64,000 bases of DNA from Candidatus Rifleibacterium sp. (GCA_035352635.1 DAOPYA010000006.1:3742-67741), one strand, 5' to 3'. Numbered from the stretch's first letter, positions 1,964-61,571 are shown. The notes: generated by a model from the sequence alone, not told the origin. Translations and numbers: made by a program.

Positions 1964-4867
1964 TCAGTCGCTTTTATCTTGGGAAAGCTTGGCGCTGCGC
2001 AGTTCGTAGAGTTCGTAGATATTGTATTCGCGTGCTTTGCCCTTAAGTGAACAGCGACGCAGAAAGTTGACGCGCCCTTCGCCCTTGAGCATGCGCATCG
2101 TCGAGCCGGAAATGATGATGCCGCTGCTGCTGTTGAGCGCCTCGTTTTTCAGGCGGGCCGCGAGGTTCACCTGGTCGCCGATCACAGTGAAGTCGAGTTT
2201 GCCGGTATATGAGCCGATGCGGCCTGAAATGACGGTGCCTGATGCAATGCCGGCGTAGATGTCGAATTGCTGTTCGTGCATGGCGGCAGCCAGGTCGAGG
2301 GCTGTTCTGGCGGCCCGCAGAGCGTGAGAGTCTGCATGAGCCTCACTCTCGCGAAAAACGAGCATCAGGGTATTATCTATTATCTTGTCGATAGTACCAC
2401 CGTGCTTTTTAACGAGGTGGTCGCCGCTGGTGATGAAGCGATTGATCAGAGCAACCGTCTGTTCGGGTGATAAACCTGCAGTAAGCTGGGTATAGTTTTT
2501 TAGGGCAGCGAAGATGATGGTGGCTTCAATGTTCTCGCCACCGGGAGCCATTTCGTGACTTTCTGACAACTCAATTTGCGAAATTGCATCTTCAGAAACA
2601 TAGTCGCTCAGCAGGTTGCGTTGCTGCAGGCCGACCACCAGGCCGGCAAAGGCTTCGTTCAATTTTTCGAACTCATCGCCAGTTGTGAGCGAAAGATTCC
2701 AGACATCGTGGCCCCGGGCTATCTGTTCGGCGCTTCTGGCAAGCTGCAGAACCGGGTTAACGAAAAACCTTTCCAGTAACTGGCTGACCAGATAAAAAAC
2801 CAGGCATAAATAGACCAGCAGACTCAGTGCAGCAGCAAAATAACCCTCGATATCAAGGCTCACCCTGACGATCGCCACTGCAATATGCGGAATATTATGA
2901 TTATAACGGCTGATGACATAGGTTCTGTTGCCCTGGTCGTCGGTTTCGCTGACGGTTCGTGATGTCTCATGCCTGGCGGCCTTTCTGATCACGGGTTCGC
3001 CAAGATGCCCACTGCCAGCCCATGTCTTTTTTGAACCAGTTCTATCGGTCGGCAAAAATGCGTATTTAATTGTGAACCCGCCCCAGCTTTCAACAAAATT
3101 GCCGTCGGCCACCGGCATCTGGGCAGTGTAAGAAGCCAAAATTGGCCCGGGTTCAAACTTTGCGCCGAGAATGCCCATGAACGGCATGCCGGGGGCGTGC
3201 TGGTCATACAATTTGTACATCGAATACCAGATGACACTCGTCGTCTGGTCAAAGTAATAGAATTGACCATTAGTGCGCAGCGAGTCGCCAATCGATGTGT
3301 TTTTGATCGGGTTGCCGGCGATGAGCATTATATCCTGGCGCACGCGGTTAACGATTGGCTCTGGCTCAAGCAGAAGGCTTAACAACTGTCGTGGCATGAA
3401 ACGCTCGACCATGCCGACTGTACTGTTCTGATTCGCGGGCGAACTGCGGTTCGGCAACTCAACAATCTGCGACTTTTCGGGTCGGTGCAGCGCCAGTGCC
3501 GAAACTGGCAGAGCTTTTCCAATGCGCTCAAATAGAATTGCCGTAGCCTGTGGGTCATTAAACAGCTGCCGGTCAATATTTTCGCCAAAGGAAATAAATG
3601 AACTTTCCAGGCCTTCCATGTACTGCTCAAGTTCGTTATGAATCTGGGTCAGGCGCGTTTCAACGTGCAGCAGAAGATTCTGCCTGGCGAGAAAGCTGTC
3701 ATACTGCCGGTGCAGATAAAACCCGATGGCAAGAAACGAAAATGGAAACAGTGAGACCAGCATGACACTCGCAAGAATGCGGCGCTTGAAACTGGTGTTA
3801 AGATCGATGCCGAAGGTCAGCATACGCATAAGCTGCACCAGAGAGATTATAATGATCAGACGACTGATCAGCCCGATATAATGACGAAGTCTCTGAAAAT
3901 CATGCTGAAAGCTGGTGGCCGGCAGATGATATTCAATGAACGGAATATCAAATTCGGCTTTTTTCTGGTTCAGGTGCATGCCGCTCTTATGCAGCCAGGT
4001 GCGAATGAATCTCTGGTCGGCCGGAGCCGTAATGACTATGCGGTCTTTGTAACGACGAATGCCGCTGAAAAGGTTTCCGGGCTGTGCTATGGCTTTCTGC
4101 ACATTGGTTTGTCTTGCGATGAGCCTGAGTTGCGGGTGAGTTTTACGAAGGGTTTTAAATATGGCTGGCCATGCAAGGTCGCGGCCGCGGAACACCGCCA
4201 GACAGCCTTTCTGGCCGGCCTGCGGCCTGGTGAACTCAAAATAGGTAAAATAAAGCTCGCCGCCGTAATCAACCGAAAGGTTCATTGAGACCTTTGCCGG
4301 TCTGATGTTGACCGTAGTGACGGTTTTGAACATCTGTTGAATTTGCAGGGCATTACGTACCGTTTCCTGACCCTCGGTCTGTTCTGCGTCTGCATTTGCC
4401 CGGTAGTTTTCTTTGGCCAGCATCTGAATAAGTTTGCGGAAAAGCGCTGCCGGCGGCATCTGCTTTTTCAGATCGGCTGGGCGAAAGGAGCGCGGCGTCA
4501 GTTTTTCGGCATTTGCATCAAAAAAGATGTAGAGCAGCCCCTGGCCGGTGATGACCCGGTCTATTTCGCTTTGCAGGTCGGCAACATTCGTCGAGCCGGC
4601 TGGAAGTTCAAGGTTTTCAAGCAGTGCGAGACGCGATTCGAGATAGTTTTCGACTACCAGCAGATTGCGGTATTCATCTATTTTCTGGTGCGCGATGGCT
4701 AGTTGCTCTGGCTCAGCAAAAAGCGCGTACTCGTCGAGAAAGTAATCGAGAGCGAACAGTGACCCGGCGAGTGGCAGAACCAGAACCAACAACCAGGCCA
4801 GCAACAACGGCCCGGCGGCAATGCTGATCGTTCCTGTAATTTTGTTTTTGCTGTCAGTTGCCATCAA
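1964..4867 (-). CDS. Membrane-bound sensor nucleotidyl cyclase (2 TM + periplasmic sensor region + HAMP + class III cyclase homology domain)
   Basis: 967 aa. N-terminal TM helix, large extracytoplasmic region, second TM. C-terminal CHD with FTVIGDQVNLAARL-type motif. Confidence 0.8.
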   Translation of the reverse strand: MMATDSKNKITGTISIAAGPLLLAWLLVLVLPLAGSLFALDYFLDEYALFAEPEQLAIAHQKIDEYRNLLVVENYLESRLALLENLELPAGSTNVADLQSEIDRVITGQGLLYIFFDANAEKLTPRSFRPADLKKQMPPAALFRKLIQMLAKENYRANADAEQTEGQETVRNALQIQQMFKTVTTVNIRPAKVSMNLSVDYGGELYFTYFEFTRPQAGQKGCLAVFRGRDLAWPAIFKTLRKTHPQLRLIARQTNVQKAIAQPGNLFSGIRRYKDRIVITAPADQRFIRTWLHKSGMHLNQKKAEFDIPFIEYHLPATSFQHDFQRLRHYIGLISRLIIIISLVQLMRMLTFGIDLNTSFKRRILASVMLVSLFPFSFLAIGFYLHRQYDSFLARQNLLLHVETRLTQIHNELEQYMEGLESSFISFGENIDRQLFNDPQATAILFERIGKALPVSALALHRPEKSQIVELPNRSSPANQNSTVGMVERFMPRQLLSLLLEPEPIVNRVRQDIMLIAGNPIKNTSIGDSLRTNGQFYYFDQTTSVIWYSMYKLYDQHAPGMPFMGILGAKFEPGPILASYTAQMPVADGNFVESWGGFTIKYAFLPTDRTGSKKTWAGSGHLGEPVIRKAARHETSRTVSETDDQGNRTYVISRYNHNIPHIAVAIVRVSLDIEGYFAAALSLLVYLCLVFYLVSQLLERFFVNPVLQLARSAEQIARGHDVWNLSLTTGDEFEKLNEAFAGLVVGLQQRNLLSDYVSEDAISQIELSESHEMAPGGENIEATIIFAALKNYTQLTAGLSPEQTVALINRFITSGDHLVKKHGGTIDKIIDNTLMLVFRESEAHADSHALRAARTALDLAAAMHEQQFDIYAGIASGTVISGRIGSYTGKLDFTVIGDQVNLAARLKNEALNSSSGIIISGSTMRMLKGEGRVNFLRRCSLKGKAREYNIYELYELRSAKLSQDKSD

Positions 4868-7838
4868 GAAGTTCCCAGCTTTCGTCGTTGTGGCGGGTCA
4901 GCCTGAAGGCATCGTTTAGAGCAGCACGACTGGCATTGCAGACAAGAATTCGACTTGTGGTATGCACGGTCATAGCTTCGAGATGGGCCGCCTGCTCTGT
5001 TATCCGCCCAATGATCGTGAAATCCTTGCGGCCGTTCGTGCTGCCAATGCTACCCGAAATGGCCTGGCCGGTAGTGATGCCGATGCCGTTCTCAAGAGCA
5101 AATAGATTCTGCCGGGCGCGTTGCCCGTTGAGCGCGAACAGTTGGCGGCGCATGGCGAGAGCGGTTTGGCAGGCTCGCTGTCCCACGGGCGCCAGGCCGG
5201 CTTTTTCATAAAAAACAACCTGTATGGCATCGCCGATATATTTATCGATTACCCCGCTATTCTCGCTTATGGCTGCTTCCATCGCGGTAAAATAAGTATT
5301 GAGCAGTTCAACAACCTCTGACGGTGCATATTTTTCGCTGATTGAGGTAAAGCCCCTGATATCTGAGGCGAGAACACTGACCACCTGCATGTCGCTGCCC
5401 GTAACTTTTGCCCCCGGGGTGCCTTCGACTCTCTCGATCAGTTTGGCCGAGACAAGTCTTTTGATCATTTCCCGCTGTCGCAAAGCCCCTGACATCTTGT
5501 TGAAAGCTGAGGTTATGAGACTGAATTCATCGCCCGAAAACTTTTCGATGAGAACGCCATAGTCTTCTTTGCTGAGCCTGGCGACCCCATCAGAAAAGAT
5601 TTTAACCGGTTTGATGATAAACTCGGCAAAGAGTAACGACAGAACCATGATCAGAAGAATACCGTAGCCAACCAGCACCGGAAAAAGCATACTGACGAAA
5701 AGCTGACCAATACCGTGCCCCCGGCTGCGGCCAATGGCCGAAAAAATGGCCGGACTGCCGGGTCGGAAGCTCCAGGCCTGAACCCTGGCTCCAGCTTCAC
5801 TGTGAAAGATCAGGCTACCTGTATCTTTGGCAACCATGGCGCGCTGAAAAATATCAAGCATTTCGTCGTTCGGAGCCGCCTGGGGCGGCCAGGCATTCAT
5901 GTTAAATTGTGATTGCCGGCGTAGTCTGGCAGCCAGCTCGATATCACAATAACGGTCGCTTCTGCTGAATCTTTGCTGCCGGGCCTGGGAATACTCGCTG
6001 AGATAGGCGTGGGTGAAAAAATCGCCGTCGTTGAATCGTGGAAAGGCGAATACATAGCCGCAGCCGGATGATTTTGCAATAATGCTGGCGGCGCGACTGG
6101 TATCAAGGGTGTGGGTAATATCACGCTGAATGGTTGTCTCGAATGGAATTGCCCCTTCTTCGCGCTCGGGCGTTATGAAGTCTTCGAAAATCCCAAGGGT
6201 CAGGGTGTTCGAAAGCACGTTTCCCTTTTTCTTCAGCAATCCGAGGTTGTCGAGATACTTCGGTATGATAGCATTGAGAAGTTTGTTGGTTTCTATGCCA
6301 AGATACTGAAGCGCCTGGTTAAAGTGAATAATGGTGCCATTTTCGTCAACCCAGATATGGTTGGTCGTTATGGTTCTCAGCCAGAGAAGATCGTCGCCGG
6401 GGCGACTCAGAACCTTTTCCGGGTCAAGTTGGCGGTTTTGATATTCTTCGAGGCGTCGTTTGGTTTCGAGCATTGCCAGTTGCTGATGCTGTGAGTTTTC
6501 GAGCTCGTTGATGACGAATTCGCGAATGAATTCTTCGGTCTTCAGCAGCACGTGATTTTCAATAAGGCGCCCTGAACCTTTGATGCTGATGGCGGTGAGA
6601 AAACCAACCCCGGTGACCGGAATAAAAATTATGATGGCAAGCAGTAACAGAAGCTTGCGGCGGATAGCCAGGCGCAAATTCAGGCCAAAAAGCCAGAAAT
6701 GCAGGGCCGCCATCAGGTAACATAGCAGCAGAAAGCCTGATATCAAGCGAAAAAGACGCTGATAGTTTTTCATTTCAATGATTTCGCGGGGTGGGGGGGC
6801 CTTGAGACGAAGATGATAGCGGCCGGTCTGGTCAGTATAGCGCTGTTTTTGCAATCTTTTGGTGAAAAAGAAGTGGTTCCAGAATTCGGTTGGCGGCCGA
6901 TCAAAGTAGAACAATGTTCCCCGTTCTTCAAAAAAACCTGATCTTGGCAGAGCTAAATCAATCAGTTCAGCCTCAATCTGCTCTGAATTATTTTGCAGCG
7001 CATTCTTTAGAAGCATGGCCGGTTCAATGGCTGATTGAAGAACCCCGATAACATAGCCACCGTGTATGTTCTTGCGGCTGACGCAACCGTAGGCATAGTA
7101 ATAAATTGACTGTCTGCCAAAATAGTCAGTGAAAACTTCCTTAACCGTATCGTTAAGCAAATCGAATTCGGTGAAACGGTTTAAATACTTGAATTCGAGG
7201 GCCGCACTCTTCTGGAAATTAAACTCAATCAAGTCATTCATGCTGGCATGCAGACCAAGGTTTCGCCAGCTGCGCTGGTAATATTGCTCATAAAGCTGCC
7301 CGCTCAGACCGATTAGGCGGCAGGCAATGGCCGTCGCCAGATTCATCGGCTCAGGGCACTGCGCAAGCAGGGTTTCGGCAAACCAGTGATATATGCCGGC
7401 AAAGGCAGGGCTGACAACGGCAATGAAGAGCGGGTCAACCCGTTGCGCCTGCATCGCATCTCTGAGCCTGTCTGGCAAGTTCTCGTTAAAGAGCTCTTTT
7501 CCATAGTCTTTAGCTGGTTGCATTTTGATCAGGTCGGCAGTTACCCCGGGCAGGGCTTTGGCATGAGCTTTCCTGATGATTTCTTTTATGAAAAAGGCTG
7601 GTTTCAGAAGGGTTTTAACTTTTGCAGTTTCCTGCAGCATCTTTTCGCGCAGCAGTGCCATGGCAGAATCAGTGCTGCGCTGCACCGCAGTCGTCAGAAG
7701 ATCGTTAAAAAACAACAACGGCGCCGCCAGCACGATAAAGCCGGCCAGTAACAGCACCAGAAGACGAGTTTCTGCGTATTTTTTCATGCCAGTTTGCCAG
7801 AAAATAATTGTCTGTTTACGCTGTGCAGCAGAGATCAT
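4854..7838 (-). CDS. Second membrane-bound sensor nucleotidyl cyclase (HAMP + class III cyclase domain), tandem paralog of 1964-4867
   Basis: C-terminal CHD (FTIIGRITEQAAHLEAM). The frame is open to 7922. ATG at 7838 is preceded by an AAGGG RBS, so I prefer that start. Overlaps the downstream cyclase gene by 14 bp. Confidence 0.75.
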   Translation of the reverse strand: MISAAQRKQTIIFWQTGMKKYAETRLLVLLLAGFIVLAAPLLFFNDLLTTAVQRSTDSAMALLREKMLQETAKVKTLLKPAFFIKEIIRKAHAKALPGVTADLIKMQPAKDYGKELFNENLPDRLRDAMQAQRVDPLFIAVVSPAFAGIYHWFAETLLAQCPEPMNLATAIACRLIGLSGQLYEQYYQRSWRNLGLHASMNDLIEFNFQKSAALEFKYLNRFTEFDLLNDTVKEVFTDYFGRQSIYYYAYGCVSRKNIHGGYVIGVLQSAIEPAMLLKNALQNNSEQIEAELIDLALPRSGFFEERGTLFYFDRPPTEFWNHFFFTKRLQKQRYTDQTGRYHLRLKAPPPREIIEMKNYQRLFRLISGFLLLCYLMAALHFWLFGLNLRLAIRRKLLLLLAIIIFIPVTGVGFLTAISIKGSGRLIENHVLLKTEEFIREFVINELENSQHQQLAMLETKRRLEEYQNRQLDPEKVLSRPGDDLLWLRTITTNHIWVDENGTIIHFNQALQYLGIETNKLLNAIIPKYLDNLGLLKKKGNVLSNTLTLGIFEDFITPEREEGAIPFETTIQRDITHTLDTSRAASIIAKSSGCGYVFAFPRFNDGDFFTHAYLSEYSQARQQRFSRSDRYCDIELAARLRRQSQFNMNAWPPQAAPNDEMLDIFQRAMVAKDTGSLIFHSEAGARVQAWSFRPGSPAIFSAIGRSRGHGIGQLFVSMLFPVLVGYGILLIMVLSLLFAEFIIKPVKIFSDGVARLSKEDYGVLIEKFSGDEFSLITSAFNKMSGALRQREMIKRLVSAKLIERVEGTPGAKVTGSDMQVVSVLASDIRGFTSISEKYAPSEVVELLNTYFTAMEAAISENSGVIDKYIGDAIQVVFYEKAGLAPVGQRACQTALAMRRQLFALNGQRARQNLFALENGIGITTGQAISGSIGSTNGRKDFTIIGRITEQAAHLEAMTVHTTSRILVCNASRAALNDAFRLTRHNDESWELLDGN

Positions 7839-7984
7839 GCCCTTGGAGATCGCAAAAGTATCATTTCTGACAAAGCAATGCAGCTGCGACATTCTACCAT
7901 TACTGCCGGCTATTGATAACAATTACCATAATGAATATCTATTGAAAAACGTTCTACCTGTTTTTAAATGAGTCAGACGGGCTG

Positions 7985-8044
7985 TATATAAGAGTGCATC
8001 ACTTGTTTGTCACCGATTCGACGGCGCGGCCTATCAGCCGGGTT
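7985..8044 (+). repeat. Copy 1 of a roughly 60-bp dispersed intergenic element (TATATAAGAG...CGATTCGACGGCGCGGCC...CAGCCGG)
   Basis: Near-identical sequences at 8251-8306, 13053-13112 and 61450-61510, all in + orientation. Confidence 0.6.
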
Positions 8045-8250
8045 ACTTTTTTGCTGACAGGAGGTCAGCGATACTCGACAGCATCAGGATAGATGCTGTC
8101 GGGTGCTACAGCGATTCGCTTCGCTCAGCAGAACCGCTCTATCGTGCGCGGTTCTGCATAAGCACCTCCTGTGCGTAACAAGCTTCCGAAAAAGTAATCC
8201 CGTCTTCTCTCCGCGCCTTGTGTTGGAATTTTCAAGGAGCTGTTGCATTT

Positions 8251-8306
8251 TTAAGAGTGCATCGCTTGTTTGTACCGATTCGACGGCGCGGCCCTTTCGG
8301 CCGGTT
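8251..8306 (+). repeat. Copy 2 of the roughly 60-bp dispersed intergenic element
   Basis: TAAGAGTGCATCGCTTGTTTGTACCGATTCGACGGCGCGGCCCTTTCGGCCGG. The 3' hairpin is retained with a different loop. Confidence 0.6.
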
Positions 8307-8478
8307 TACAGGTTAACTTGTAGCTTGCCGGCAAAAAGTATTGTAAAATACCCTGCGTTGCCTGATCAGTCAGAACCTGCATTTTCAAACTTCGCAAGCG
8401 CGAACCCGGTTTTTCAGACAGAGAAAGACTGCGTGCCGGGCTGCCTGTTACCCTGTTATCATAATTCAGTCACCGACC

Positions 8479-9858
8479 ATGATCATTGAACAAAAAGACG
8501 CGCAATACATCAGAATGACCGAATCTCCGGTTGGCGGGCTGATTGCCTCGCTGGCCGTTCCGACGATTGTCAGTATGCTGGTATCGTCGATCTACAACAT
8601 GGCTGACACCTGGTTTGTTTCAAAGCTTGGCACCAGCGCTTCGGCCGCGGTTGGTATTGTGTTTTCGCTGATGGCAATTATTCAGGCGATCGGCTTTATG
8701 ATCGGCATGGGTTCGGGAAGCATGATCTCGCGACTTCTCGGTGCCTGCGAGAATGACCGGGCAAATGAGGTCGCGGCGAGCGGTTTTTATCTTTCTTTTT
8801 GTCTTGGCCTGTTGCTGGCCATCGCCGGCATGTATTACCTCGACCCGTTGATGCATCTGCTCGGGGCCACCAGAAGCATTTTGCCCTTCGCCCGGCAATA
8901 TGCATTCTATATTCTGTTCGCTGCGCCGGTTATGACCGCCTGTTTTCTGCTGAACAACGTTTTAAGATCTGAGGGCAAGGCGCAGCTGGCGATGTTTGGC
9001 ATTGTTTCGGGTGGGGTGCTTAATTGTTTTCTTGACCCTCTGTTTATTTTTACTTTCAAGATGGGCATTGGTGGGGCTGCAATCGCCACCGCCCTCAGTC
9101 AATGTGTCAGTTTTGTGATTTTGTTGTCGCCTTTTCTCAGGGGCAAAACGGTTACCAGGTTAAAAATGGCTTCGGTTGCCAGAAACCCGGTTGTTTATCT
9201 GCAGATTCTCAAAAATGGTTTGCCTTCATTCTGCCGTCAGGGCCTGTCGAGTGTCGCTACCGTTGCCCTGAACGTTAACGCGGCGGTCTATGGTGACGCG
9301 GCGGTTGCCGGGGTTTCGATCGTCGGCCGGATATTTATGACTGTTTTTTCGATCACCCTCGGCATCGGGCAAGGGTTTCAGCCGGTGCTCGGTTACAACT
9401 ATGGTGCTAAAAAATACGGGCGGGTGCGCGAAGCCATTTTTTTTACACTCAAGAGCAGTTCTGTTGCGATGATTGTTTGCGCTTTGGTTGGCTATTGCAA
9501 AGCCTCAGCCCTGATGCGATTATTCATTGCCGATGATGCAGCGGTTATCAGCATAGGGTCTGTGGCTCTGCAGGCTCAATCGCTGGCGGTGCCGCTCATT
9601 CCGATGATGGTGGTCTGCAATATGACTTTTCAGGGCCTTGGCCGCTCAATGACGGCAACTATTCTGTCGATGGCCCGCCAGGGTATCTTTTTTATGCCGA
9701 TTATCCTGGTTTTTCCGCGTCTGTTCGGCTTGTTTGGTGTGCAGATCGCTCAAGCGCTCGCCGATGTCTGCACGTTTCTTGTTTGCCTGCCGTTTATGTA
9801 TAAATTTCTCAAGGAACTTGACGCCGAAACAGCGAAACTCGACACCACTGAAGCCTGA
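8479..9858 (+). CDS. MATE family multidrug/Na+ efflux transporter
   Basis: 459 aa, 12 TM, typical MatE composition. Confidence 0.85.
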   Translation: MIIEQKDAQYIRMTESPVGGLIASLAVPTIVSMLVSSIYNMADTWFVSKLGTSASAAVGIVFSLMAIIQAIGFMIGMGSGSMISRLLGACENDRANEVAASGFYLSFCLGLLLAIAGMYYLDPLMHLLGATRSILPFARQYAFYILFAAPVMTACFLLNNVLRSEGKAQLAMFGIVSGGVLNCFLDPLFIFTFKMGIGGAAIATALSQCVSFVILLSPFLRGKTVTRLKMASVARNPVVYLQILKNGLPSFCRQGLSSVATVALNVNAAVYGDAAVAGVSIVGRIFMTVFSITLGIGQGFQPVLGYNYGAKKYGRVREAIFFTLKSSSVAMIVCALVGYCKASALMRLFIADDAAVISIGSVALQAQSLAVPLIPMMVVCNMTFQGLGRSMTATILSMARQGIFFMPIILVFPRLFGLFGVQIAQALADVCTFLVCLPFMYKFLKELDAETAKLDTTEA

Positions 9859-10055: not shown

Positions 10056-13043
10056 ATGAAAAAACCGTTCTGGTCGTGTTGTGCTATGCTCGTCTTTTTG
10101 CTTTTATTGCTCTGCTCGCCGGTCAAAGCAGCCGAGCCTGAGCTTGGGGCCAGACTGCTTTTTTACCCCATCGGCAGTGATGCCCATTTTCTCGTAAAAG
10201 CCGTTAAGAGGTCTGATACCGATAGTTCATGGTTTTATTACCGTAACCAGGCTGTTTCAATCATAGAACCCCGGCCTGGCGAATGGGTTTCTTCTTTTAT
10301 AAACACAATCTGGGAAGAAAACCAGGTAACCCATGAAATTTTCGCCTGGGGCAAGCTTTCTGGCAATTCTGAAGATTTCGCAGGGCGCTTGCAGGCCTTT
10401 ACCGGCAAAGAACCGGTTGGCATTGCTTTCAATAAAATCGAGAAAAGCCCTCTGGCTCGTCTGGTTTGCGCGGGCGCCGAAAGCGGCAAAGCGCTGAGTG
10501 GTATCCCCGCCTACAAAAAATGGGCAAAAGTCAGCGACGGCGAATTACAGCACTGGGAAGCACTTTTCCAACATCTTGCCTCGCTGAACCGGCAGCGCAA
10601 TGTTCGGGGCGAGAATCTCGATCTATACAGTGTTTTTACCGGCATCAGCGCTATCCGTGAAACCCTGCAGATCGATGTCGATCTCGCCAATGAGAATCCG
10701 GTTCTTGATCGGGCCTGTAACGCCAACCTGCGCATTATTCAGAGTGCGGTCGAAATGTACAACATGGACCACTCGACCATGATGCAAACTCTTGATCTGC
10801 AGGCTCTCGTCGAAGGTGGCTACCTGAAAAGCAAACCGACATGCCGGTCCGGTCGTGAATATTATGGCAAGAACCTGGGGTCTGATGGCATGATTCGCTG
10901 CCCGGCTCACGGCGATATCAATAACCCGCGCCCTGATGATGGTCTGGTTGTCGATAATACAGCGAGAGTCAAAGTAGCTGGGCTGGAAGGCCCTAAAGCG
11001 CCATCGCACCCCTGGCGCAAAATGATCAAAAACCCCAATCTGGTTTTGCCCGAAGTCTATCGTCTGATACCGTCTGACTGCGCGTTTATTCATTTTCCTT
11101 CTTACAGCTCGTTTCGCAAGGCTTTTGACTTTTTTGCCGACTGGGCATCGGCTCTGGGCACCATGGCTGGCGGCGATTCGGGCAGTTCAAATTTCGGTCT
11201 TGAGAAGCGCATCAAAGACCAGTTGTTGCTCAAAACCGACATGCTGACCAGACTATTTGCAGACCTGGCGCTCAGTGATATTGTTTTTGTCTGTGAAGAC
11301 CCGTTTATCTTTGAAGGCAGCGCAGTGGCGGTAGTGCTTAAAATAACCAACGAAACAATGTTGCGCGAGAAGCTTGCAATGACCGCCAACGAATTTCGCA
11401 GCGAAAACCCTGCGATCAGCGAGAATACGCTGATGATGGGTGGCAGAAAGGTGCAGGCCTTCACCTCGCCTGATTTCCGCTATCGTTCTTATCGCCTGCT
11501 TGCCGATGGGCACCAGATCATCTCCAATTCGCCCCTGTTAATGGAAAAATTCATTTCGGTGCTTGACGGCAAGACCCCGGCGCTTACAGAGTTTCTTGAT
11601 CTGCATTATTTTTATGAACATATCGAGAAGAATTTTAAGCAACCGGGTCGCATTTTCAGCTTTCTTTCTGATGCCTTTATCAGAAAAATCATCGGGCCTG
11701 CCTGCAAAATCGCCACCAGACGCCGACTCGAATGCATTCGCCAGTCACTGCTGCAGACCCATGAATTGATGGTGAATGATGGCAAACTCGACGAGACCCT
11801 TACCTGCCCCGAGGGTGGCGTCTACGAGGTTGTAGATGGCGAAATCAGTTGCACGGTGCATCGGGTTTTTGGGCGAATGACGCCGGTAAGCGAAAGACTT
11901 CCGGTTGAAGCGACCCCTGAAGAAGCCAGCAGCTATGCAACTTTCGTTGCCCAATACAATCAGTATTTTTCGCAATTTTTTGACCCGATCGGTTTTGTAT
12001 TTTCAACTGAACCCGAATTCACCGGGCGACTTCTAATTATGCCGCTGGTTGAAAACGGCATTTACAGCGAATTGCAAAAAAATGTCCGCCATGAGCCGAT
12101 GAATGCCGGCCCGCAACCGCAGAACGGCATTCTCAAGGTCGGTGTGAATCTTCAAGCCGCTAATCTGCCGGTGCCCGGTTACTGGCTCAGTAACATCGCT
12201 TATCAGAAACGTCTTGAACTCGTCGGCCGCTGGTTCACTGGTTGTGTCTGGGCACATCTTGCTGACCACCCCCTGTTGTTCCACTGGGATTCAAACCTGC
12301 TGGCGCGTGGTATTCTCGGTGCTTTCAGCGGCGGGCGAACTGGTATGATGGGGTTATCACCGGCAATACTCAGCTTTTTTTCGCCGGTGCTTTTCGCGAT
12401 CGAGCTGACCGATGAGTCGCATTTTGACTCTATAATTGACTGGGTTCGCAACGAAATCGCGGGCAGCATCAACAATTCTGGCTTCATGGGGCCGGCATTC
12501 AAGCTCGATCAGCTCGAAGAGAATGGCGTCAAAATGTATGTGTTCTCGTTTGAACTTTTTGCGATCAGAAAAACCTATTACCTGACGCTTCGTGATGGTT
12601 TTTTTCTGGTGGCCAGCAAAAAAGAACTGCTCTTCAATCTTGAAGAAGCGCCTGCTTATGAAAAAAATGCCTTTTCAGGCAATTTCAACCTCGTCTTTTA
12701 CCCGGCGAAAATAAGACTGATGCGCCCTGATCTTCTCGAAGTGCGTGCCCGTTCGCAACGCGAAACCTGCCTCGAAAACCTTAAAAACCTGCATTTCGTC
12801 TCGACCTTTCACCCAGACCAGACCGAAAAATTTTATCAGATTGTTTACGCTGCGCAACCGGTCTGCCCGGCCGGCGGCACTTATTCAAGCGTCATGCCGG
12901 TTTCCTGCTCTCAACATGGCACAATTTCGGGAGGCGTGCTCAAGCCGGTTTCTGACTTTTTCAAAGGGGTTGGCGCCATCTCGATTCAGAGTTTCATCGA
13001 CTCCGAAGGCTTTCAGAGTGAGGTTAGATTTTTCCCCGAGTAA
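10056..13043 (+). CDS. Large secreted protein (signal peptide) containing an internal pseudopilin (GspG-like) domain
   Basis: Cleavable signal peptide MKKPFWSCCAMLVFLLLLLCSPVKAAEP. Internal segment DRACNANLRIIQSAVEMYNMDH..LQALVEGGYLKSKP..C..HG matches the post-helix region of T2SS GspG/type IV pilins and the C-terminal domain of 37740-40205. Confidence 0.7.
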   Translation: MKKPFWSCCAMLVFLLLLLCSPVKAAEPELGARLLFYPIGSDAHFLVKAVKRSDTDSSWFYYRNQAVSIIEPRPGEWVSSFINTIWEENQVTHEIFAWGKLSGNSEDFAGRLQAFTGKEPVGIAFNKIEKSPLARLVCAGAESGKALSGIPAYKKWAKVSDGELQHWEALFQHLASLNRQRNVRGENLDLYSVFTGISAIRETLQIDVDLANENPVLDRACNANLRIIQSAVEMYNMDHSTMMQTLDLQALVEGGYLKSKPTCRSGREYYGKNLGSDGMIRCPAHGDINNPRPDDGLVVDNTARVKVAGLEGPKAPSHPWRKMIKNPNLVLPEVYRLIPSDCAFIHFPSYSSFRKAFDFFADWASALGTMAGGDSGSSNFGLEKRIKDQLLLKTDMLTRLFADLALSDIVFVCEDPFIFEGSAVAVVLKITNETMLREKLAMTANEFRSENPAISENTLMMGGRKVQAFTSPDFRYRSYRLLADGHQIISNSPLLMEKFISVLDGKTPALTEFLDLHYFYEHIEKNFKQPGRIFSFLSDAFIRKIIGPACKIATRRRLECIRQSLLQTHELMVNDGKLDETLTCPEGGVYEVVDGEISCTVHRVFGRMTPVSERLPVEATPEEASSYATFVAQYNQYFSQFFDPIGFVFSTEPEFTGRLLIMPLVENGIYSELQKNVRHEPMNAGPQPQNGILKVGVNLQAANLPVPGYWLSNIAYQKRLELVGRWFTGCVWAHLADHPLLFHWDSNLLARGILGAFSGGRTGMMGLSPAILSFFSPVLFAIELTDESHFDSIIDWVRNEIAGSINNSGFMGPAFKLDQLEENGVKMYVFSFELFAIRKTYYLTLRDGFFLVASKKELLFNLEEAPAYEKNAFSGNFNLVFYPAKIRLMRPDLLEVRARSQRETCLENLKNLHFVSTFHPDQTEKFYQIVYAAQPVCPAGGTYSSVMPVSCSQHGTISGGVLKPVSDFFKGVGAISIQSFIDSEGFQSEVRFFPE

Positions 13044-13052
13044 AGTGCTTCT

Positions 13053-13112
13053 ATATAAGAGCGCATTGAGTATTTTTCGCCGATTCGACGGCGTGGCCTG
13101 TCAGCCGGTTTT
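13053..13112 (+). repeat. Copy 3 of the roughly 60-bp dispersed element, in the 3' UTR of the 995-aa gene
   Basis: CTATATAAGAGCGCATTGAGTATTTTTCGCCGATTCGACGGCGTGGCCTGTCAGCCGG. Confidence 0.6.
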
Positions 13113-13126
13113 GTATAGACTTAAAA

Positions 13127-13166
13127 ATGGGGCTGTTTCATAGCAATGTGAAGCAGCCCCTTTTTT
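13127..13166 (+). terminator. Rho-independent terminator
   Basis: GGGGCTG..CAGCCCC hairpin followed by TTTTTTT. Confidence 0.7.
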
Positions 13167-13288
13167 TGAACTGAAACACGGCGCCATTTAAAAAATTTTG
13201 GCAAATGTAAACAATTGGCGGCAGGGGCTGACCGATTTTGCGTATGTAAGTTTACATAATATTCTGTAGCCCCGTTGTTTTTGATGAA

Positions 13289-21545: not shown

Positions 21546-21942
21546 TTTTTTCTCCGTTGAAAATTTTTATGCTGTTTTGTTAGCAATTAGTGTACCAAGT
21601 CTTAAAAACTGCTCTGGTGCAAAAATTCACAAAGCAAGTATAGCATAATGACAAAAAACCGGCAATCCTCTGCCGAAAAATTCAGCAATTCTCAGTCAAA
21701 AGCAACCCGGCTGACAGGTCGAAGCTCCTACTTTTAAAAGACAACTGTTTAAACAAAAGTGGCTTTTGACGCGAGTTACAAAACTCACCGAGGATTGCTG
21801 CGAAAAAATCGCCAATTCATAGACACTGAAGCTATATCTGCAAAAACTATTTTGATTTCAAGAGGGTTTGCCTGGCAGGTTGAATTTTTTCATTCCCGCT
21901 GTTTTGCTTACGAGTTAAGCATTCCCGGCAAATCGAAAAAGA

Positions 21943-26531: not shown

Positions 26532-27484
26532 AGCCTCTTTACCCGGCAACTTTCAAGGCTGCTGATGTAGAACGCCAGCATTGGGCAGAAATACCGGCGA
26601 ACATTCAGTTTTATCGGCATGTTCGCAACGTCTGTAATGGTTTTCCAAGTGTTGTGCTCGCCTGGTCGGCCAGGCCAGGCCTCGAAAGCCTTGCGGCGGG
26701 CATTGCTGAAGGCCTCATGAATAGCGGAATAAATGTTTTCATGCCGCCGCAGGCCGCACCGATTTGTGCTTTATCACAGGCGATCGGCGCACGTAATCTT
26801 CCGATTGCCCTTTATCTCGACGCTGACGAACATGTTGCCAATCTGACGCTTGCCGCGCTTTCGAGCCACGGCGGGCCATTTGACCAGCAGGATATTCTTA
26901 CGGCGCCGTTTGGGCGCAGCGGAAAGTCTGGAGTCGCCGGTGAAACCGACATTGAAAGAGCTTATGTCAATAATCTTGCCGGGCTGGCTGACCAGTTTAT
27001 CGAAAACGGCACCGGTTTTTCCGAGCTGGAAATCCCTTTTAGCGCCCTTTTAGATCGTCTGCATGAAAACCCGGCACTGAAAATACTTTTTCAGCAAGAC
27101 CCCGAGGGGCCGAAAGCCATCGTAGGTCATGATGGCCAGACGTTAACCATAATCGAAAAAGATGGCCGTCAGATGCAGACAACCGAAATAGCCAGCTTTA
27201 TCACCAGTTACCTTGTCGAAGACAGAATGGCTGCCGGCACACTTCTCGGGCCGACCGGTCAGGTGCACGATTTTGCCAGATCTTTCGCCGGTCTCGAAAC
27301 CATTGAAATCGATGATTCGCTGACTGATTTTCACCATCGCGCCAGTTTCATCGACCTGCTGATTGGGTGGTGGCACAATGGTTTGATTGCTCACCAGGGC
27401 GGCAGTTGCTTTGGCGATGCCATTTTAACCGCCGTCTACTATCTCGAATCCCGCCGCCGCCACCACCAAAAAAAAAATATGTAG
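26528..27484 (+). CDS. Hypothetical protein, weak phosphohexomutase-like signature (SSHGGP)
   Basis: 318 aa. Translationally coupled to the ROK kinase (overlap at 26528-26531). Confidence 0.45.
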   Translation: MKPLYPATFKAADVERQHWAEIPANIQFYRHVRNVCNGFPSVVLAWSARPGLESLAAGIAEGLMNSGINVFMPPQAAPICALSQAIGARNLPIALYLDADEHVANLTLAALSSHGGPFDQQDILTAPFGRSGKSGVAGETDIERAYVNNLAGLADQFIENGTGFSELEIPFSALLDRLHENPALKILFQQDPEGPKAIVGHDGQTLTIIEKDGRQMQTTEIASFITSYLVEDRMAAGTLLGPTGQVHDFARSFAGLETIEIDDSLTDFHHRASFIDLLIGWWHNGLIAHQGGSCFGDAILTAVYYLESRRRHHQKKNM

Positions 27485-27663
27485 GGACCGGTTTGTAGGG
27501 ACCGGTTTGTAGGGACCGGTTTAAAACCGGTCCCTACGGGTATGTAATTGCATCCGGGTATGTAATCGTGCGCGGGTATGTAATTGCATCCGGGTATGTA
27601 ATCGTGCGCGGGTATGTAATTGCATTCGGGTATGTAATTGTGTGCGGGTACGCAATCACACCC
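27481..27663. repeat. Minisatellite: 3 x 14-bp (GTAGGGACCGGTTT), a 13-bp-stem perfect palindrome, then 7 x 18-bp direct repeats (GGGTATGTAATYGYRYSC)
   Basis: Read directly. Sits between the stop of 26528-27484 and the stop of the convergent rlmD-like gene. Confidence 0.85.
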
Positions 27664-29005
27664 GTTCGAAGACACACACCAGTTCAACATGATGCGTACG
27701 TGGGTATAGATCGAACCCGGCGACCTCAGTCAGGCGGTAACCGCTGTTGACGATGGCGCTCGCATCTTTTTCGCAGGCATCGAGGTCGCAGAAAACGCAG
27801 ACAACCTTTTTGGGCAGCAATTTGCCGAGCAGACGTGCGATGCCGGGGGTGCCGGTGCGCGGTGGGTCGATCAGTAGAACATCAGGTTCAGGGGTGCATT
27901 TTGCCAGTTCTTTGAGCGCATCACCTTCAATGAGACTTATGCGTTCAGAGAAACCGCTGCGTATAACGTTGCGTTGCCCGGTTCTAACTGCACCAGGGTG
28001 TGATTCTATTGCCTCAACCCGGGCGCCCTTGGCAGCCAGAGCCAGAGTGAAATTGCCGGCACCGGCAAACCCTTCAACAATGCGAGTTTCGGCGGAAGGT
28101 TTGCAGAATTCAACAACCTTGCGCACCAGCACTGGGTTCTGAAAGATGTTTCCCTGCACGAAGAACGAAGGTTCGGCATCATAAGGCCCACCATCTATTT
28201 CGGGGGCGACCAGCCCGGTAACATTGACCGGCCCGACGACTTCTTTAATTTTGCCATCGAATGTAGAGATCGACATGCCCTTGAGATTAAGACTGCGCAT
28301 GACTTTCATCAGATCTTCATAGCAATGCCGTGAAGTTTGCCCCTTCATGAGCACGGCGTGCCCGGTGACCCGGTCTGAATTGTGTGCTGAAGAAGACATC
28401 AATGTCAGGCTGTCGAGCATGATCGGAACCTGATTGAGAATTTTGCGGGCGGCGACCAGGCGGCGGTTGAGTGGGGCGGTAACCAGGGCGCAGGCAGTAA
28501 CCGGCACCACGTTTCCGGGCACTGGTGTCTGCCAGTTATCGGAAGCGAGAAAACCTGATTCGCGTTCTTCAAAGCTTCGGCTCTGATGCAGCCTGACGCG
28601 TGGCAGATACCTGATCAGCTCACGGGAAGGGTGAAAGCTGTGAACGAAGGCTTCTCTGCCGCCTGGTATGCGGGCGAGACTGCGTTCAATCATAGCCTGT
28701 TTTTCTTTTTTGCGGCCTTTTTCTGAGAGTTCGAGAAGATCGCAGCCGCCGCAAGGGCCGTGAAAAAAGCAGTCGGGCTTGACGCGTTCGGGTGAAGGCT
28801 CAAAAAGGGCTGCAGATACGACTTTTAAAGCGCTGTCAAGCTGGACTTCGACCTTGTCGCCAGGCAGAAAACCGGCAAGCCTGACCCGGTTATGTTCAAG
28901 GGTAATAAAGGCCTGACCGTTGCCGGTCAGACCTTCAACAACTGCAATCACGCGTCTGAGTTTGTTTTCGTTCACTCTTGTTACTTCTTGATGACTTTTG
29001 GGCAC
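27656..29005 (-). CDS. 23S rRNA (uracil-5)-methyltransferase RlmD-like (TRAM + Fe-S + class I SAM MTase)
   Basis: N-terminal TRAM-like region. CGGCDLLEL Fe-S cysteines. C-terminal MTase with FCDLDACE region. Confidence 0.75.
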   Translation of the reverse strand: MPKSHQEVTRVNENKLRRVIAVVEGLTGNGQAFITLEHNRVRLAGFLPGDKVEVQLDSALKVVSAALFEPSPERVKPDCFFHGPCGGCDLLELSEKGRKKEKQAMIERSLARIPGGREAFVHSFHPSRELIRYLPRVRLHQSRSFEERESGFLASDNWQTPVPGNVVPVTACALVTAPLNRRLVAARKILNQVPIMLDSLTLMSSSAHNSDRVTGHAVLMKGQTSRHCYEDLMKVMRSLNLKGMSISTFDGKIKEVVGPVNVTGLVAPEIDGGPYDAEPSFFVQGNIFQNPVLVRKVVEFCKPSAETRIVEGFAGAGNFTLALAAKGARVEAIESHPGAVRTGQRNVIRSGFSERISLIEGDALKELAKCTPEPDVLLIDPPRTGTPGIARLLGKLLPKKVVCVFCDLDACEKDASAIVNSGYRLTEVAGFDLYPRTHHVELVCVFERV

Positions 29006-47730: not shown

Positions 47731-49097
47731 AAACTTCGCGCAGACAGGGCATGACCCTTATCGAAATAACGATTGGCTTTGCCATTTTAACGGCGATCAG
47801 CGCCTTTTTTCTCAGTTTTCTGACTTCTTCTTCAAAAGAGATTTCGTTTTCGGCAGATCACTTTAATGCGGTTATTCTATCGCAGAAGGTCTGCGAAGAT
47901 TTGCTTGAAGAGATCGCCGTAAACCCTTATGGCCTTGAGACCCTTGGCATCGACGAATCAATCAACAGCAAACATGACGTTGTTGATGGCAGTTCGGTGT
48001 TCTTCTCTTTTATCGAAGACCGCACTGAGCCGTGGGGTTTGATTGAGCCGGCTAAAGATGGCATGATCAACAGTTCTATGCAGCCGCTTTATAGTTCAGT
48101 TAAAAAATTTAAATTCGGGGTTTCGGGCAGGCGCTTGGCAAAGACCGGCGACCACGAAGACCGCAATCTGGTTTCGTGCAATGTTGACTTCTCGTGGAGC
48201 GCTCAAACCGGCAAGGGAGCCTATAACAATTCATTTGAGCTTTTTTCGCCAGTTTCGGTCAAAAAGGTCTCGCTGGGCGTGTCGCTTAACGAGGCTGCAA
48301 TCGATGCCCGGATTCCCCCGGAAGTCTTTTATCAGCCCTCACAAACCATCGGAGAACTCGCAACCCGGATCGGTGAAAACGTTGATGCGGTGCTTTCGGT
48401 CGGGCGTATTTCTCTGGTAAGCCGCGACTTTATCAATTCACAGTTCTACCGTGATTCAAAAGATGCCATCAGGATTCTTTTGCGTAAACTCTCGACTCTT
48501 TCGGCCGATGACAGCGAAGAAATCTTCGAAACCCGCTTGCAGCTGGCAAAGACCTGGTATGAGCAGGCAAAGGTCTGCTTTCAGATCATCAGCTACCTCG
48601 AGCCGCATTTCACCACTCTGCAACAGCAGGGAAAATTTGACGGCACTTCTGGCAGCGGTTTTAACCCTATCAGTTTTCAACAAGATCTCATGAGCTTCAG
48701 AATCATTTATGAATTCTTTGCTGGTGCGATTGTTCAGGCCAGGTTTCATTATTATCAGCTGTTGCAGCCGGCCATGGTCGCTTTAAAAGGCAACAAGGCC
48801 CAGCTTCAGGTCATTCAGAAACTTATCGATATTTACCGCATCACTTCAATATTGCCCACCAGACCAGAAGGCATGGCAGAGTATCGAAGTTTTCTTAATC
48901 GCATCAAGGGCCTGTCAGAGAACCGTAACCCATTTGTTAACCGTATGATCGGCCATGAATTGAAGATGCTTGATAATCGCAATGACTGGCTGCAGCATTA
49001 CCCGAACCTTGGCCGCATCGATGATATGCTAACCGGCAAAATGCCGGGTATTCTTGCCTTCATAAAGACAAAGACCATAGGGGCGCTCACAAATTAA
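47727..49097 (+). CDS. Large prepilin-type N-terminal domain protein (GspK/minor pilin-like, 456 aa)
   Basis: RQG/MTLIEITIGFAILTAISAFF with Glu +5. Translationally coupled to the upstream pilin-like gene. Confidence 0.65.
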   Translation: MKTSRRQGMTLIEITIGFAILTAISAFFLSFLTSSSKEISFSADHFNAVILSQKVCEDLLEEIAVNPYGLETLGIDESINSKHDVVDGSSVFFSFIEDRTEPWGLIEPAKDGMINSSMQPLYSSVKKFKFGVSGRRLAKTGDHEDRNLVSCNVDFSWSAQTGKGAYNNSFELFSPVSVKKVSLGVSLNEAAIDARIPPEVFYQPSQTIGELATRIGENVDAVLSVGRISLVSRDFINSQFYRDSKDAIRILLRKLSTLSADDSEEIFETRLQLAKTWYEQAKVCFQIISYLEPHFTTLQQQGKFDGTSGSGFNPISFQQDLMSFRIIYEFFAGAIVQARFHYYQLLQPAMVALKGNKAQLQVIQKLIDIYRITSILPTRPEGMAEYRSFLNRIKGLSENRNPFVNRMIGHELKMLDNRNDWLQHYPNLGRIDDMLTGKMPGILAFIKTKTIGALTN

Positions 49098-49440
49098 GCC
49101 GGCCGACACACTCCGGGTTGCAATTTTTGTGCGTGCATAAGCTTTAAAGGCCTGTCTGGCCAGTTGATTTGCGGGCAAGAAACCGCACCGCTGGTGCAGA
49201 GGCCGATCAGTCTCTCAGTAATCAATCGTTATCAGGTATATCAACCGAAACGTATTAGCCTTCTTTTGTCAACCCAGCCTTTGACGCGCTTCTTTTTGCC
49301 GCTGTTGTGAAGACTGCCTTCATGTCGGTGCCCGCCTCTTGTAATAAAATGGAATATTCCCCACAATTCCCACAACCCGGCGCGAGGCCCTTTAATTGAC
49401 GCAAAAGGTTCTTTCGGCTCCCCGTAGATTTTTGCAGGCC
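49036..49440. pseudogene. Degenerate first copy of the duplicated module: flank Y1, deleted remnant of the 73-aa gene, promoter element P1
   Basis: 49036-49270 is about 90% identical to 51359-51590. 49271-49345 matches 51693-51790 (an internal deletion has removed most of the small gene). 49346-49410 is identical to 54250-54314. Confidence 0.7.
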
Positions 49441-49625
49441 TCAATAACACCCGGATTGAAAAATGGCCGCATGTCAAAAATTCGCGCATCGCCACTCAGC
49501 CATCAAGCCTGAAAAAACTGCGCGAACTCAAAAACCTCGCGGCCGAAGAAACCGCCGCAAAATAACCTTGTGGCCGATTTCCCTGGGCCGGTGACCTCGA
49601 AAAAATGACCTAAGACTCATGATTT

Positions 49626-50840
49626 TTAAGTCTGCTGGCTGAGGTCATGCAGGCGTTTTTTTGTGACTTTTTCGAGTTGGGTTCTTTGTTTTTCGGTCAT
49701 GGGGATCTGCTGCAGAATGGCTGAATACTGGCAGAACCTTGCTGTCAGCCGGTCGAGCATTTTGCTGACCGCCGCTTCAGAAACTCCGAACCGCCCGGCA
49801 AAGCTGACAAGATTACTCCTTTTGATGTTGTCGTCACGTCCATCAAGTTTCAAGGCCATTTTGTGGTCACCATAAATATGTGTGCAGAGCAGATCGTAGG
49901 CCGGCGAGACCTCGACTATCCTGCTTCCAGACTTGACGAGCAGGCTGATATTCTTTGCATGCAGATCGCCGTTGCCAATGAGATACGAGAACGCATAAAC
50001 CTCAATCAGCCTTAGTATGGCAACCTTCGCCGCCGATACATGCGTTGTGACGCCCCTGGCAATATCATTAAAAGCGACTCGATACTTGTCGGCCGGGTAG
50101 CGGTCGAGCATCTGGCAGGCGTCTTCCTGATGATGCCTAAGAAATCTGCCGGTTTTTTCGTTCCAGACGCGGTCGAATCGTGTGACGAGAAGGCCATTAT
50201 TGCCGTCGCGGTCTCTAACCAGACTGGTTCTGGCCGCTTCAATGCTGCATTTTTGTGCTAGTTGCATGCAGAAGTGTTCATTCTCAACCAGATTCGGTTT
50301 GTCGGGCGGATTCAACTTGAGAATATACCGGCAATTCTCTTTCGCAATGTTGACAGGGAAACTGATCATCGATGCCGAGAGTTTTTCCTGGGCTCCTGCA
50401 ATCGCCTCGTCGCGCATAATTGCATTGCCGGATAACACTTTCTGAAAATATTCGTAGAAATTTATTTCTCTGAGCTTTGGAATCTGTGCTTCATCCTCAG
50501 AGCGCTCGACGCCGGCATAGACATCACCGATTACCTGATCGCCGATGCTTGCGAAAAGACTGAAAAGATCGTCTTCAGAAGTCTTTAGATTTCGCACCAG
50601 CGACTTTAATCGTAACCCTTCGGGCAGCAGTCCCGCAAAAAACGGAAAAAGATTGACGCCAGGGTTGATCAGGCGTGCCGGGCTTTTCTTCATGCAGAAA
50701 GAAATCCCTGCAAAATTCTGCTGCCGCAGAAAATCGTCGTCGAACACAAACTCGCAGCCGGCAGGCGTTCTGCGCAAGATTCCGGCTCGCTGACCATCTC
50801 GAAAGATGTTTAATTCGCTGATCGAACGGGCGTCTTTCAT
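49626..50840 (-). CDS. hipA: HipA-family serine/threonine kinase toxin
   Basis: HipA N and C domains. GNGDLHAKNISL catalytic motif. 4-bp overlap with hipB. Confidence 0.85.
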   Translation of the reverse strand: MKDARSISELNIFRDGQRAGILRRTPAGCEFVFDDDFLRQQNFAGISFCMKKSPARLINPGVNLFPFFAGLLPEGLRLKSLVRNLKTSEDDLFSLFASIGDQVIGDVYAGVERSEDEAQIPKLREINFYEYFQKVLSGNAIMRDEAIAGAQEKLSASMISFPVNIAKENCRYILKLNPPDKPNLVENEHFCMQLAQKCSIEAARTSLVRDRDGNNGLLVTRFDRVWNEKTGRFLRHHQEDACQMLDRYPADKYRVAFNDIARGVTTHVSAAKVAILRLIEVYAFSYLIGNGDLHAKNISLLVKSGSRIVEVSPAYDLLCTHIYGDHKMALKLDGRDDNIKRSNLVSFAGRFGVSEAAVSKMLDRLTARFCQYSAILQQIPMTEKQRTQLEKVTKKRLHDLSQQT

Positions 50841-51094
50841 TTTTCAACAATATTCTCTGAAGTTCGGAAGCCTGAACCTCCGGGGGTAAGGGCCAACTCG
50901 AGGCCGAGAACATCAATTACGGCAAGCAGCTTGTCGAGCTGTGTTTTGGGCTTGCCGTTTTCGAGCTGCGAAACGTAGTTAAGACTGACACCCGCCAGGT
51001 CGGCCAGCTGTGTCTGAGTCAGACCGAGATTTTTGCGGTAGTCCTTGATTGCCGCACCTAATTTTTTAGTTACCTGCGAACTCGAATTGTTCAT
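50837..51094 (-). CDS. hipB: HipB-like XRE-family HTH antitoxin/transcriptional regulator
   Basis: LGLTQTQLADLAGVSLNYVSQLENGK helix-turn-helix. Confidence 0.8.
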   Translation of the reverse strand: MNNSSSQVTKKLGAAIKDYRKNLGLTQTQLADLAGVSLNYVSQLENGKPKTQLDKLLAVIDVLGLELALTPGGSGFRTSENIVEK

Positions 51095-51157
51095 TTTTCC
51101 TATGTGTGAAGTAAAAATTTAACTTATCCTACTAAAGTATATTGATTTTTATAAAAA

Positions 51158-51760: not shown

Positions 51761-51822
51761 AAGTTTACTCCTGAAATAAAATAGAATGTTCCCCTGAGAT
51801 TCAACAAAAGCGTTCAGCAGGT

Positions 51823-61418: not shown

Positions 61419-61449
61419 AAATACCTATCCAACCTGATTACAACGTGTC

Positions 61450-61510
61450 TATATAAGAGAGCATCGAGTATTTTTCGCCGATGCGACGGCGCGGCCTATC
61501 AGCCGGGTTT
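61450..61510 (+). repeat. Copy 4 of the roughly 60-bp dispersed element, followed by an 11-bp-stem hairpin (61521-61558)
   Basis: CTATATAAGAGAGCATCGAGTATTTTTCGCCGATGCGACGGCGCGGCCTATCAGCCGGG. Confidence 0.6.
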
Positions 61511-61571
61511 GTTTTGTTTAGAGGCTGCCCCGCTCATGCGGTATCGCGGGGCAGCCTGCTTGATAACCGAT

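Follow-up and report, generated by a model that had tools for sequence, protein, structure and literature searches.

A probable MITE- or REPIN-like interspersed repeat family with palindromic full-length copies in Candidatus Rifleibacterium

MITEs mobilised by IS630/Tc1-mariner enzymes include RUP in Streptococcus pneumoniae, the Correia elements (CREE) in Neisseria and the IS630-derived MITEs of cyanobacteria. The ERIC/IRU elements of enterobacteria and the BOX elements of pneumococci are imperfect palindromes of about 100–170 nt located in transcribed intergenic regions. Both are modular, with short forms produced by internal deletion and long forms by internal insertions of about 50–70 nt. 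IS630-family and Tc1/mariner elements insert at the dinucleotide TA and duplicate it (PMC2170065). For IS630, a passage in the same source, which cites Tenzen & Ohtsubo 1991, describes a preference for TA within CTAG.

Here we analyse a repeat found in a 64,000-nt stretch of DNA from Candidatus Rifleibacterium sp. (GCA_035352635.1 DAOPYA010000006.1:3742-67741), referred to below as the window. Consensus, core and repeat searches all recover four plus-strand copies of a 60-nt element (copies A–D, Table 1), in agreement with a first-pass annotation made from the sequence alone. The four copies are ~84–95% alike, and the number of such copies expected by chance is about zero. A 33-nt consensus matches exactly at C and D and is not found in 100 shuffles, while the 19-nt core CCGATTCGACGGCGCGGCC matches at all four positions with at most one mismatch (0.01 expected). 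The repeat search of the window likewise groups A–D among its repeat families. C and D form the most similar pair, with 90.8% identity over 65 nt, in direct orientation and 48 kb apart. Two blocks, AGAGnGCAT and TTCGACGGCG, are invariant in the alignment of copies.

The annotation had placed every copy on the plus strand. This does not hold, since copies E, H and A' lie on the minus strand, and the argument drawn from strand uniformity fails with it. On the contig, four full copies run in one direction and a fifth, E, in the other; the density is at least five copies in 73 kb. Copy H keeps just the 3' part of the core (CCTGTCAGCCGGGTTGCTTTTG).

Table 1. Copies of the repeat and associated hairpins, in window coordinates unless stated otherwise
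Feature	Position	Strand	Description
Copy A	7987..8052 (wider span 7985-8052)	+	left arm (core) of the full-length palindromic element
A-block interior	8053..8172	+	spacer common with F (CTACAGCGATTCGCTTCGCTC) and two ~50-nt hairpin-bearing insertions
A'	8173..8247	-	right arm ('type II'), inverted and diverged relative to the core
Copy B	8247..8320	+	solo core abutting A'; nearest in sequence to A
Copy C	13052..13117 (wider span 13050-13117)	+	solo core including flanking TA dinucleotides
Intrinsic terminator of the 995-aa gene	13129..13167	+	14-bp stem 13129-13160, then T-run; not part of the repeat
Copy H	21695..21721	-	truncated or decayed, intergenic; from profile search (nhmmer E = 0.055, weak)
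Copy D	61450..61520 (wider span 61448-61520)	+	solo core; antisense to both neighbour genes
Perfect 12-bp-stem hairpin	61522..61557 (61522-61533/61546-61557)		not of the repeat family
Copy E	L031 1551-1618, same contig, 2.1 kb left of the window	-	full copy

Every copy is intergenic, in either orientation, and the functions of the neighbour genes are unrelated: MatE, adenylate cyclase, a ComGC_C protein, amidohydrolase, PAS-GAF-REC, GDSL-like lipase, FMN reductase, DUF2442, a FadL/PorV-like OMP and CHASE2-SpoIIE. Copies A and B, 262 nt apart, share an intergenic space of 556 bp, bounded by a HAMP-adenylate cyclase gene (4854-7922, minus strand) and a MatE gene (8479-9858, plus strand), the start of which lies 170 nt downstream of B. 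Copy C begins 7 nt past the stop codon (13041-13043) of a gene for a 995-aa protein and ends before the terminator of that gene. Copy D is flanked by the genes for an SsnA-like amidohydrolase and a PAS-GAF-REC protein, both on the minus strand. These contexts (A and B 5' of MatE, C in a 3' UTR before a terminator, D antisense) are as first described. The hairpin that follows D had been given an 11-bp stem; its actual perfect stem has 12 bp, and it lies 15 nt downstream of the stop codon of the SsnA-like gene (minus strand), with no T-run on either strand. Outside the window, copy E is found 19 nt past the stop codon of a co-oriented GDSL-lipase-like gene. Copies thus sit 5', 3' and antisense to unrelated genes, and neither their position nor their orientation is constant. 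The view that the element is an autonomous dispersed unit, and not a simple cis-regulatory leader, is borne out.

Several other features of the window deserve mention. Two overlapping (4854-4867) HAMP-adenylate/guanylate cyclase genes, encoding 967 and 1022 aa, occupy 1964-7922 directly upstream of the MatE gene and divergent from it. The 995-aa protein (10056-13043) has a weak ComGC_C domain match in precomputed Pfam tags, and a direct Pfam scan of this protein assigns it to no family. Just 22 homologues are found at E <= 1e-20 among 5.8 billion proteins, and those with a named source all come from Candidatus Riflebacteria, indicating a lineage-restricted large protein. Two adjacent tandem arrays just past an ORF ending at 27484 reach up to, and slightly into, the start of an RNA methyltransferase-like gene (27656-29005, minus strand): a perfect 14-nt unit (TGTAGGGACCGGTT) repeated 3.1 times at 27480-27522 and a 36-nt unit repeated 3.2 times at 27537-27664, with 18-nt sub-repeats CGGGTATGTAATyG. 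Furthermore, long dispersed direct repeats lie among HipA-like, TPR and peptidase-C39-like genes at 49035-56150 (234 nt, 90%, 49035/51352; 113 nt, 96%, 51174/55762; 83 nt, 93%, 51280/56068; 68 nt, 97%, 49268/51689; 65 nt, 100%, 49364/54248). They resemble a gene cassette that has recently been duplicated or is recombining, and no transposase is found among them.

With the copies beyond the window included, seven full cores (A–D, E, F and one at locus L024) occur within at most ~90 kb sequenced from this organism or population, with nhmmer E-values of 1e-15 to 1e-22. An exact-pattern scan of the JGI metagenomes yields only two copies, both true (loci L023 and L024). Copy F, on contig k141_699681 (locus L037) from the same ENA sample as the window, is identical to the L023 copy and lies between an FMN-reductase gene and a DUF2442 gene, antisense to both. 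An FMN reductase encoded next to a related copy is assigned by name to Candidatus Rifleibacterium. The L024 copy is located 33 nt past the end of a co-oriented ORF without other annotation. A diverged subfamily, G, is present in the relatives L039, L040 and L044; the diverged G copy may resemble the Correia terminal repeat (GCGGATTA...CCGGTnCGGCG).

The same exact-pattern scan of GTDB representative genomes finds no true copy: its six matches are all chance ones, in unrelated phyla and without the rest of the element. A scan of viral sequences with the 19-nt core gives chance matches only, and BLAST of the F-block against a plasmid collection gives no match. The whole window has no Rfam match at gathering thresholds. 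Permissive Rfam scans return noise only at 7900-8500 (E <= 10) and, over this region, L037 and L024 together, sub-threshold matches to snoRNA sR5, Thr_leader and psRNA2. The psRNA2 match (RF02349; L037 652-844, minus strand; 23 bits versus a cut-off of 65, E = 0.044) covers the FMN-reductase terminator and the F' arm, and we judge it to be due to chance. A full-text literature search on Riflebacteria, Rifleibacterium and Ozemobacter turned up no repeat description. Since neither the plasmid collection nor Rfam holds a match and the taxon search returned no description, this is a new repeat family, of a well-known kind of selfish DNA.

The 60-nt element forms a single arm of a larger, imperfect palindrome, a point absent from the first-pass annotation. 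A and A' together form a 266-nt imperfect palindrome (7985-8250) with a folding energy of -116.2 kcal/mol (z = -8.2), and the F-block is a 172-nt palindrome of -55.4 kcal/mol (z = -7.1); for either block, 0 of 200 shuffles fold as well. The right arms A' (window) and F' (L037) align to the core in reverse orientation, and A and F are alike in the core plus ~110 nt downstream. One U-A to C-G compensatory pair between the A- and F-blocks preserves the long stem. Both strands of the palindrome fold about equally well, which argues for a palindrome at the DNA level and not for a strand-specific RNA. The full-length architecture comprises two diverged, inverted arms of ~65 nt and a spacer of ~30 nt, ~170 nt in total.

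The A-block differs from the F-block by the insertions at 8046-8099 and 8122-8172, which are missing from the latter and each carry a nested hairpin of their own (for example 8073-8085/8092-8104). The two insertions also carry the complementary 9-mers ACAGGAGGT and ACCTCCTGT (arms 8048-8065/8164-8181), and no further copy of the inserted segments is found in the window or in the related loci examined. The A-block is a full-length copy that internal hairpin insertions have enlarged to 266 nt. Since B abuts A' head to head, orientation alternates along A, A' and B.

Five copies (B, C, D, E and L024) each consist of a solo arm of 62–70 nt with short inverted termini (TAyAArAG...CTTTTG, or, written out further, TAyAArAG...CTTTTGTA); the 5' end of copy A reads TATAAGAG. 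In copy C, the termini 13050-13063 and 13106-13119 are 79% complementary over 14 nt, and its inverted repeat can be taken as about 8–14 nt long; no inverted repeat of 10 nt or more is reported for D, E or L024. The solo arms are probably internal-deletion derivatives or half elements. Overall, element sizes range from 62 to 266 nt, among at least seven full copies plus diverged ones. The sequence at 13053-13112 is accordingly a solo arm inserted in the 3' UTR of the 995-aa gene.

Comparison with related loci reveals gain and loss of copies. In L009, whose MatE is 93% identical, the gap upstream of MatE measures 280 bp versus 556 bp in the window; A and B are absent, and a shortened A'-like remnant is kept. 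At the position of B, L009 (1130-1180) has a 48-nt piece bracketed by TA...TA-G with core-like ends (TAGAAG..AGTATTT/GCTGCCGGTTGTCTGG), which may be an internally deleted orthologue of B, an assignment that nhmmer does not support. MatE homologues are too widespread between phyla to guide a search for relatives. L038 and L048 (88–89% amino acid identity) are without the ~237-nt insertion that bears F. Similarly, the flank shared by L038 and L039 is 97% identical, and a 137-nt G-block is present in L039 only. In more distant relatives at 65–68% amino acid identity (L027–L030, ~37 kb non-redundant), no copy is found.

Copies also coincide with breaks in the assemblies. The contigs of L040 and L044 stop within the G core, and that of L044 also starts inside right-arm sequence, as expected at places where a repeat breaks de Bruijn assembly.

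The boundaries of the copies share a signature. Copies C, D, E and L024 are each bracketed by C-TA...TA-G (C-TA at 13051-13053 and TA-G at 13116-13118 for C; 61449-61451 and 61519-61521 for D), and B and the F-block end in TA-G, with TAG at 8321-8323 after the right end of B. G-TA stands at 7984-7986, just before copy A, and the G-block lacks the two-sided TA bracket. The spacing between conserved core and TAG differs among copies (7 to 16 nt), which suggests that TAG is part of the flank and not of the element. A duplicated target TA and TA bases terminal to the element give the same pattern. TAG occurs in the window at 0.005 per position and CTA is also rare, while CTAG is ~28-fold depleted, with 9 occurrences observed versus 249 expected from base composition.

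The sole informative empty site, that of the F insertion in L038, reads AGTCTAGAAATG and has CTAG exactly at the junction. The filled/empty pair L037/L038 is not clean: 3–5 nt differ at one junction, and an extra hairpin segment of ~80 nt is present. This segment (L037 907-985; TTGAACCTGA...TCAGGTTTGA) came in with F, relative to L038, and may be a second, unrelated miniature element using the same TA site. The check for flanking duplications that the first-pass annotation had proposed is suggestively positive, with C-TA...TA-G flanks and one empty site containing CTAG.

In our reading, the copies belong to a non-coding, non-autonomous interspersed repeat family of the MITE/REPIN-like kind, confined to a narrow Candidatus Rifleibacterium lineage, of which the 60-nt sequence is one arm (probability about 0.62). 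The family is repetitive, palindromic in architecture, restricted to intergenic sequence, polymorphic in its insertions and placed at assembly breaks, and it lacks the features expected of an sRNA or a riboswitch. Its copies would have spread by transposition supplied in trans. The enzyme would most likely be a TA-duplicating DDE transposase of the IS630/Tc1-mariner type with a preference for the rare CTAG, which would generate C-TA[element]TA-G. We tentatively favour such an IS630-type enzyme acting at CTAG over one of the HUH type, which is the main alternative and itself unlikely. The window and ~340 kb of related loci yield no transposase gene and no autonomous element with matching ends. 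Effects on neighbour genes would be a by-product of the landing site: copy C would do no more than extend the 3' UTR of the 995-aa gene, upstream of the gene's own terminator, and the A-block would separate the cyclase and MatE genes by a very stable hairpin.

The strongest competing explanation, which we regard as doubtful, is a REPIN- or PATE-like selfish repeat moved by a single-strand HUH transposase (IS200/IS605-type or RAYT). Insertion would then occur 3' of CTA without duplication, the inverted doublets would be the mobile form and the solo arms decayed singlets. The bracket CTA[element]G is just as compatible with insertion 3' of a fixed target, and the full-length copies are inverted doublets with a spacer that form a long hairpin and coexist with singlets, as in REPINs (PMC3116915, PMC3337134). 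By eye, small subterminal hairpins are possible (YGAG-nAUUU-YUCR; CGGC-loop-GCCG). Among the five full copies on the contig, four are co-oriented, while the cumulative GC skew climbs monotonically across the window, yet the bias is not strict, given the minus-strand copies E, H and A'. The 62-nt arms, however, are not palindromic (z = +0.1 to -2.5 against shuffles for single-copy folds; consensus fold of 8 distinct copies -6 kcal/mol, with eight pairs), whereas REPs are hairpins of 20–40 nt. Moreover, no conserved foot of the GTAG type is identified, and neither a RAYT nor a TnpA gene is found in the window or the related loci examined.

In a further reading, which we find quite improbable, the active unit would be the solo 62-nt arm: non-palindromic, targeted to CTAG and spread by a host transposase, with some copies co-opted as 3'-UTR or antisense RNA modules. 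This would explain the invariant blocks, the placement 7–33 nt after stop codons and the series U-A / U.G / C-G seen by eye among the copies in the small 5' hairpin YGAG-nAUUU-YUCR. The evidence for co-option consists of these positional hints and the one small hairpin series. If true, the repeat would be a transposon-distributed regulatory cassette in an uncultured phylum.

The first-pass annotation had offered a small-RNA gene family or a miniature repeat as the two options, and it is the miniature repeat that stands. A small-RNA family, in which each copy would be its own transcription unit and the conserved 60 nt a functional RNA, is very unlikely. The 84–95% conservation across dispersed intergenic copies would suit it, as would the 3' end of the core, where a small GC hairpin precedes a U-rich stretch (GGGUUnCUUUU), and the strong terminator behind C; D and F, being antisense to their neighbours, would need promoters of their own if expressed. 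Against this, no sigma-70-like promoter is predicted at A–D, by rules from which Riflebacteria promoters may differ, and conservation does not extend to the TATA-like motif at the 5' end, which reads CATACAAGAG in F and CTAAATTAGAG in E. C alone has a terminator behind it, and a homologous one stands 30 nt past the stop codon of the orthologous gene in L027 and L028 (68% amino acid identity), which have no element; it is therefore the terminator of the upstream gene itself. The consensus fold is weak and none of its eight pairs is compensatory in the alignment of 8 closely related copies (covariation term +0.34). No Rfam match is obtained, permissive thresholds included, and copies are missing at the orthologous sites in L009, L038, L048 and L027–L030. 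The density of at least five copies in 73 kb also far exceeds that of known sRNA families.

Other readings of the element as a functional sequence were considered and rejected. A small ORF on either strand is not maintained, since frames and stops differ among copies and B has a 1-nt frameshifting indel. A sigma-54 promoter, a tRNA-like T-arm or att remnant and an IHF site, each assessed by eye, appear not to fit the respective spacing or pairing rules.

A cis-acting regulatory RNA or DNA site under selection is highly unlikely, be it a MatE leader or tandem riboswitch, a module for termination or stability in the 3' UTR, or a site bound by a DNA- or RNA-binding protein. In its favour, A and B stand one after the other before a MATE efflux gene, as tandem riboswitches typically do, and C, E and L024 follow co-oriented genes or ORFs at 7, 19 and 33 nt. 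The orthologous MatE gene (93% amino acid identity) nevertheless lacks A and B, orientation is inconsistent, with D and F antisense to both of their neighbour genes, and the neighbour genes have no common function. Rfam matches and covariation are absent, as described above. The long invariant blocks, which could be taken as a sign of such a site, are by our estimate no longer than expected at ~85% identity. Finally, there is next to no probability that C and D, the most similar pair, in direct orientation 48 kb apart, are attL/attR repeats from the integration of a ~48-kb island, since further copies exist elsewhere, no integrase or transposase is present among 27 ORFs scanned between 13 and 61 kb (several ORFs, mainly at 15.8–24.3 kb, were left out), and the genes downstream of C (endonuclease I, alpha-amylase-like, PMT_2, GT2, SH3 and others) keep their order in L029, which does not have the element.

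To return to the favoured reading of a MITE/REPIN-like family, an interspersed repeat family is here described for the first time in Riflebacteria, which is known from metagenomes only and ranks as a candidate phylum. The repeats fragment short-read assemblies of the genus, with contigs ending in copies, and are open to confusion with sRNAs or riboswitches in automated scans; conversely, they can be used as strain-level insertion markers. The ~28-fold depletion of CTAG together with the apparent landing in CTAG makes it testable whether tetranucleotide avoidance and transposon targeting are linked. The 266-nt hairpin upstream of the MATE efflux gene could influence the expression of that gene. 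The current understanding of bacterial mobile DNA is unchanged by these repeats.

Among known systems, ERIC/IRU and BOX offer a parallel to the size difference between the A-block and the F-block, which resembles their internal insertion variants. In contrast, there is no sequence similarity to ERIC or BOX and the host phylum is different. Furthermore, ERIC copies are, to our knowledge, mostly conserved at orthologous sites, whereas the repeats described here turn over between close relatives.

The comparison with REP/REPIN-RAYT systems (PMC3116915, PMC3337134) is closer in architecture: in both, spaced inverted doublets form a hairpin, singlets coexist with them and all copies are extragenic. 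The arms differ, being ~62 nt long and not hairpins themselves, whereas a REP is a short (~20–40 nt) imperfect palindrome. Unlike in REP/REPIN-RAYT, no GTAG-type motif is recognised and no RAYT gene is found in the loci examined, and the C-TA/TA-G (CTAG/TA) bracket is not a REPIN feature.

MITEs of the IS630/Tc1-mariner group differ from the present family in having hosts outside the uncultured candidate phylum Riflebacteria, and also in their parental elements and ends, since here no parental IS or transposase is found and the terminal inverted repeats of the solo arms are rudimentary; the TA duplication, in addition, is deduced here from a single imperfect empty/filled pair. The likeness to these MITEs extends over size (60–270 nt), the non-coding and intergenic nature of the copies, and their polymorphism between close relatives. 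It also includes the inverted arms, the long hairpin and the size variants created by internal deletion or insertion, as well as the TA flanks and the one empty site at CTAG, the target preference of IS630.
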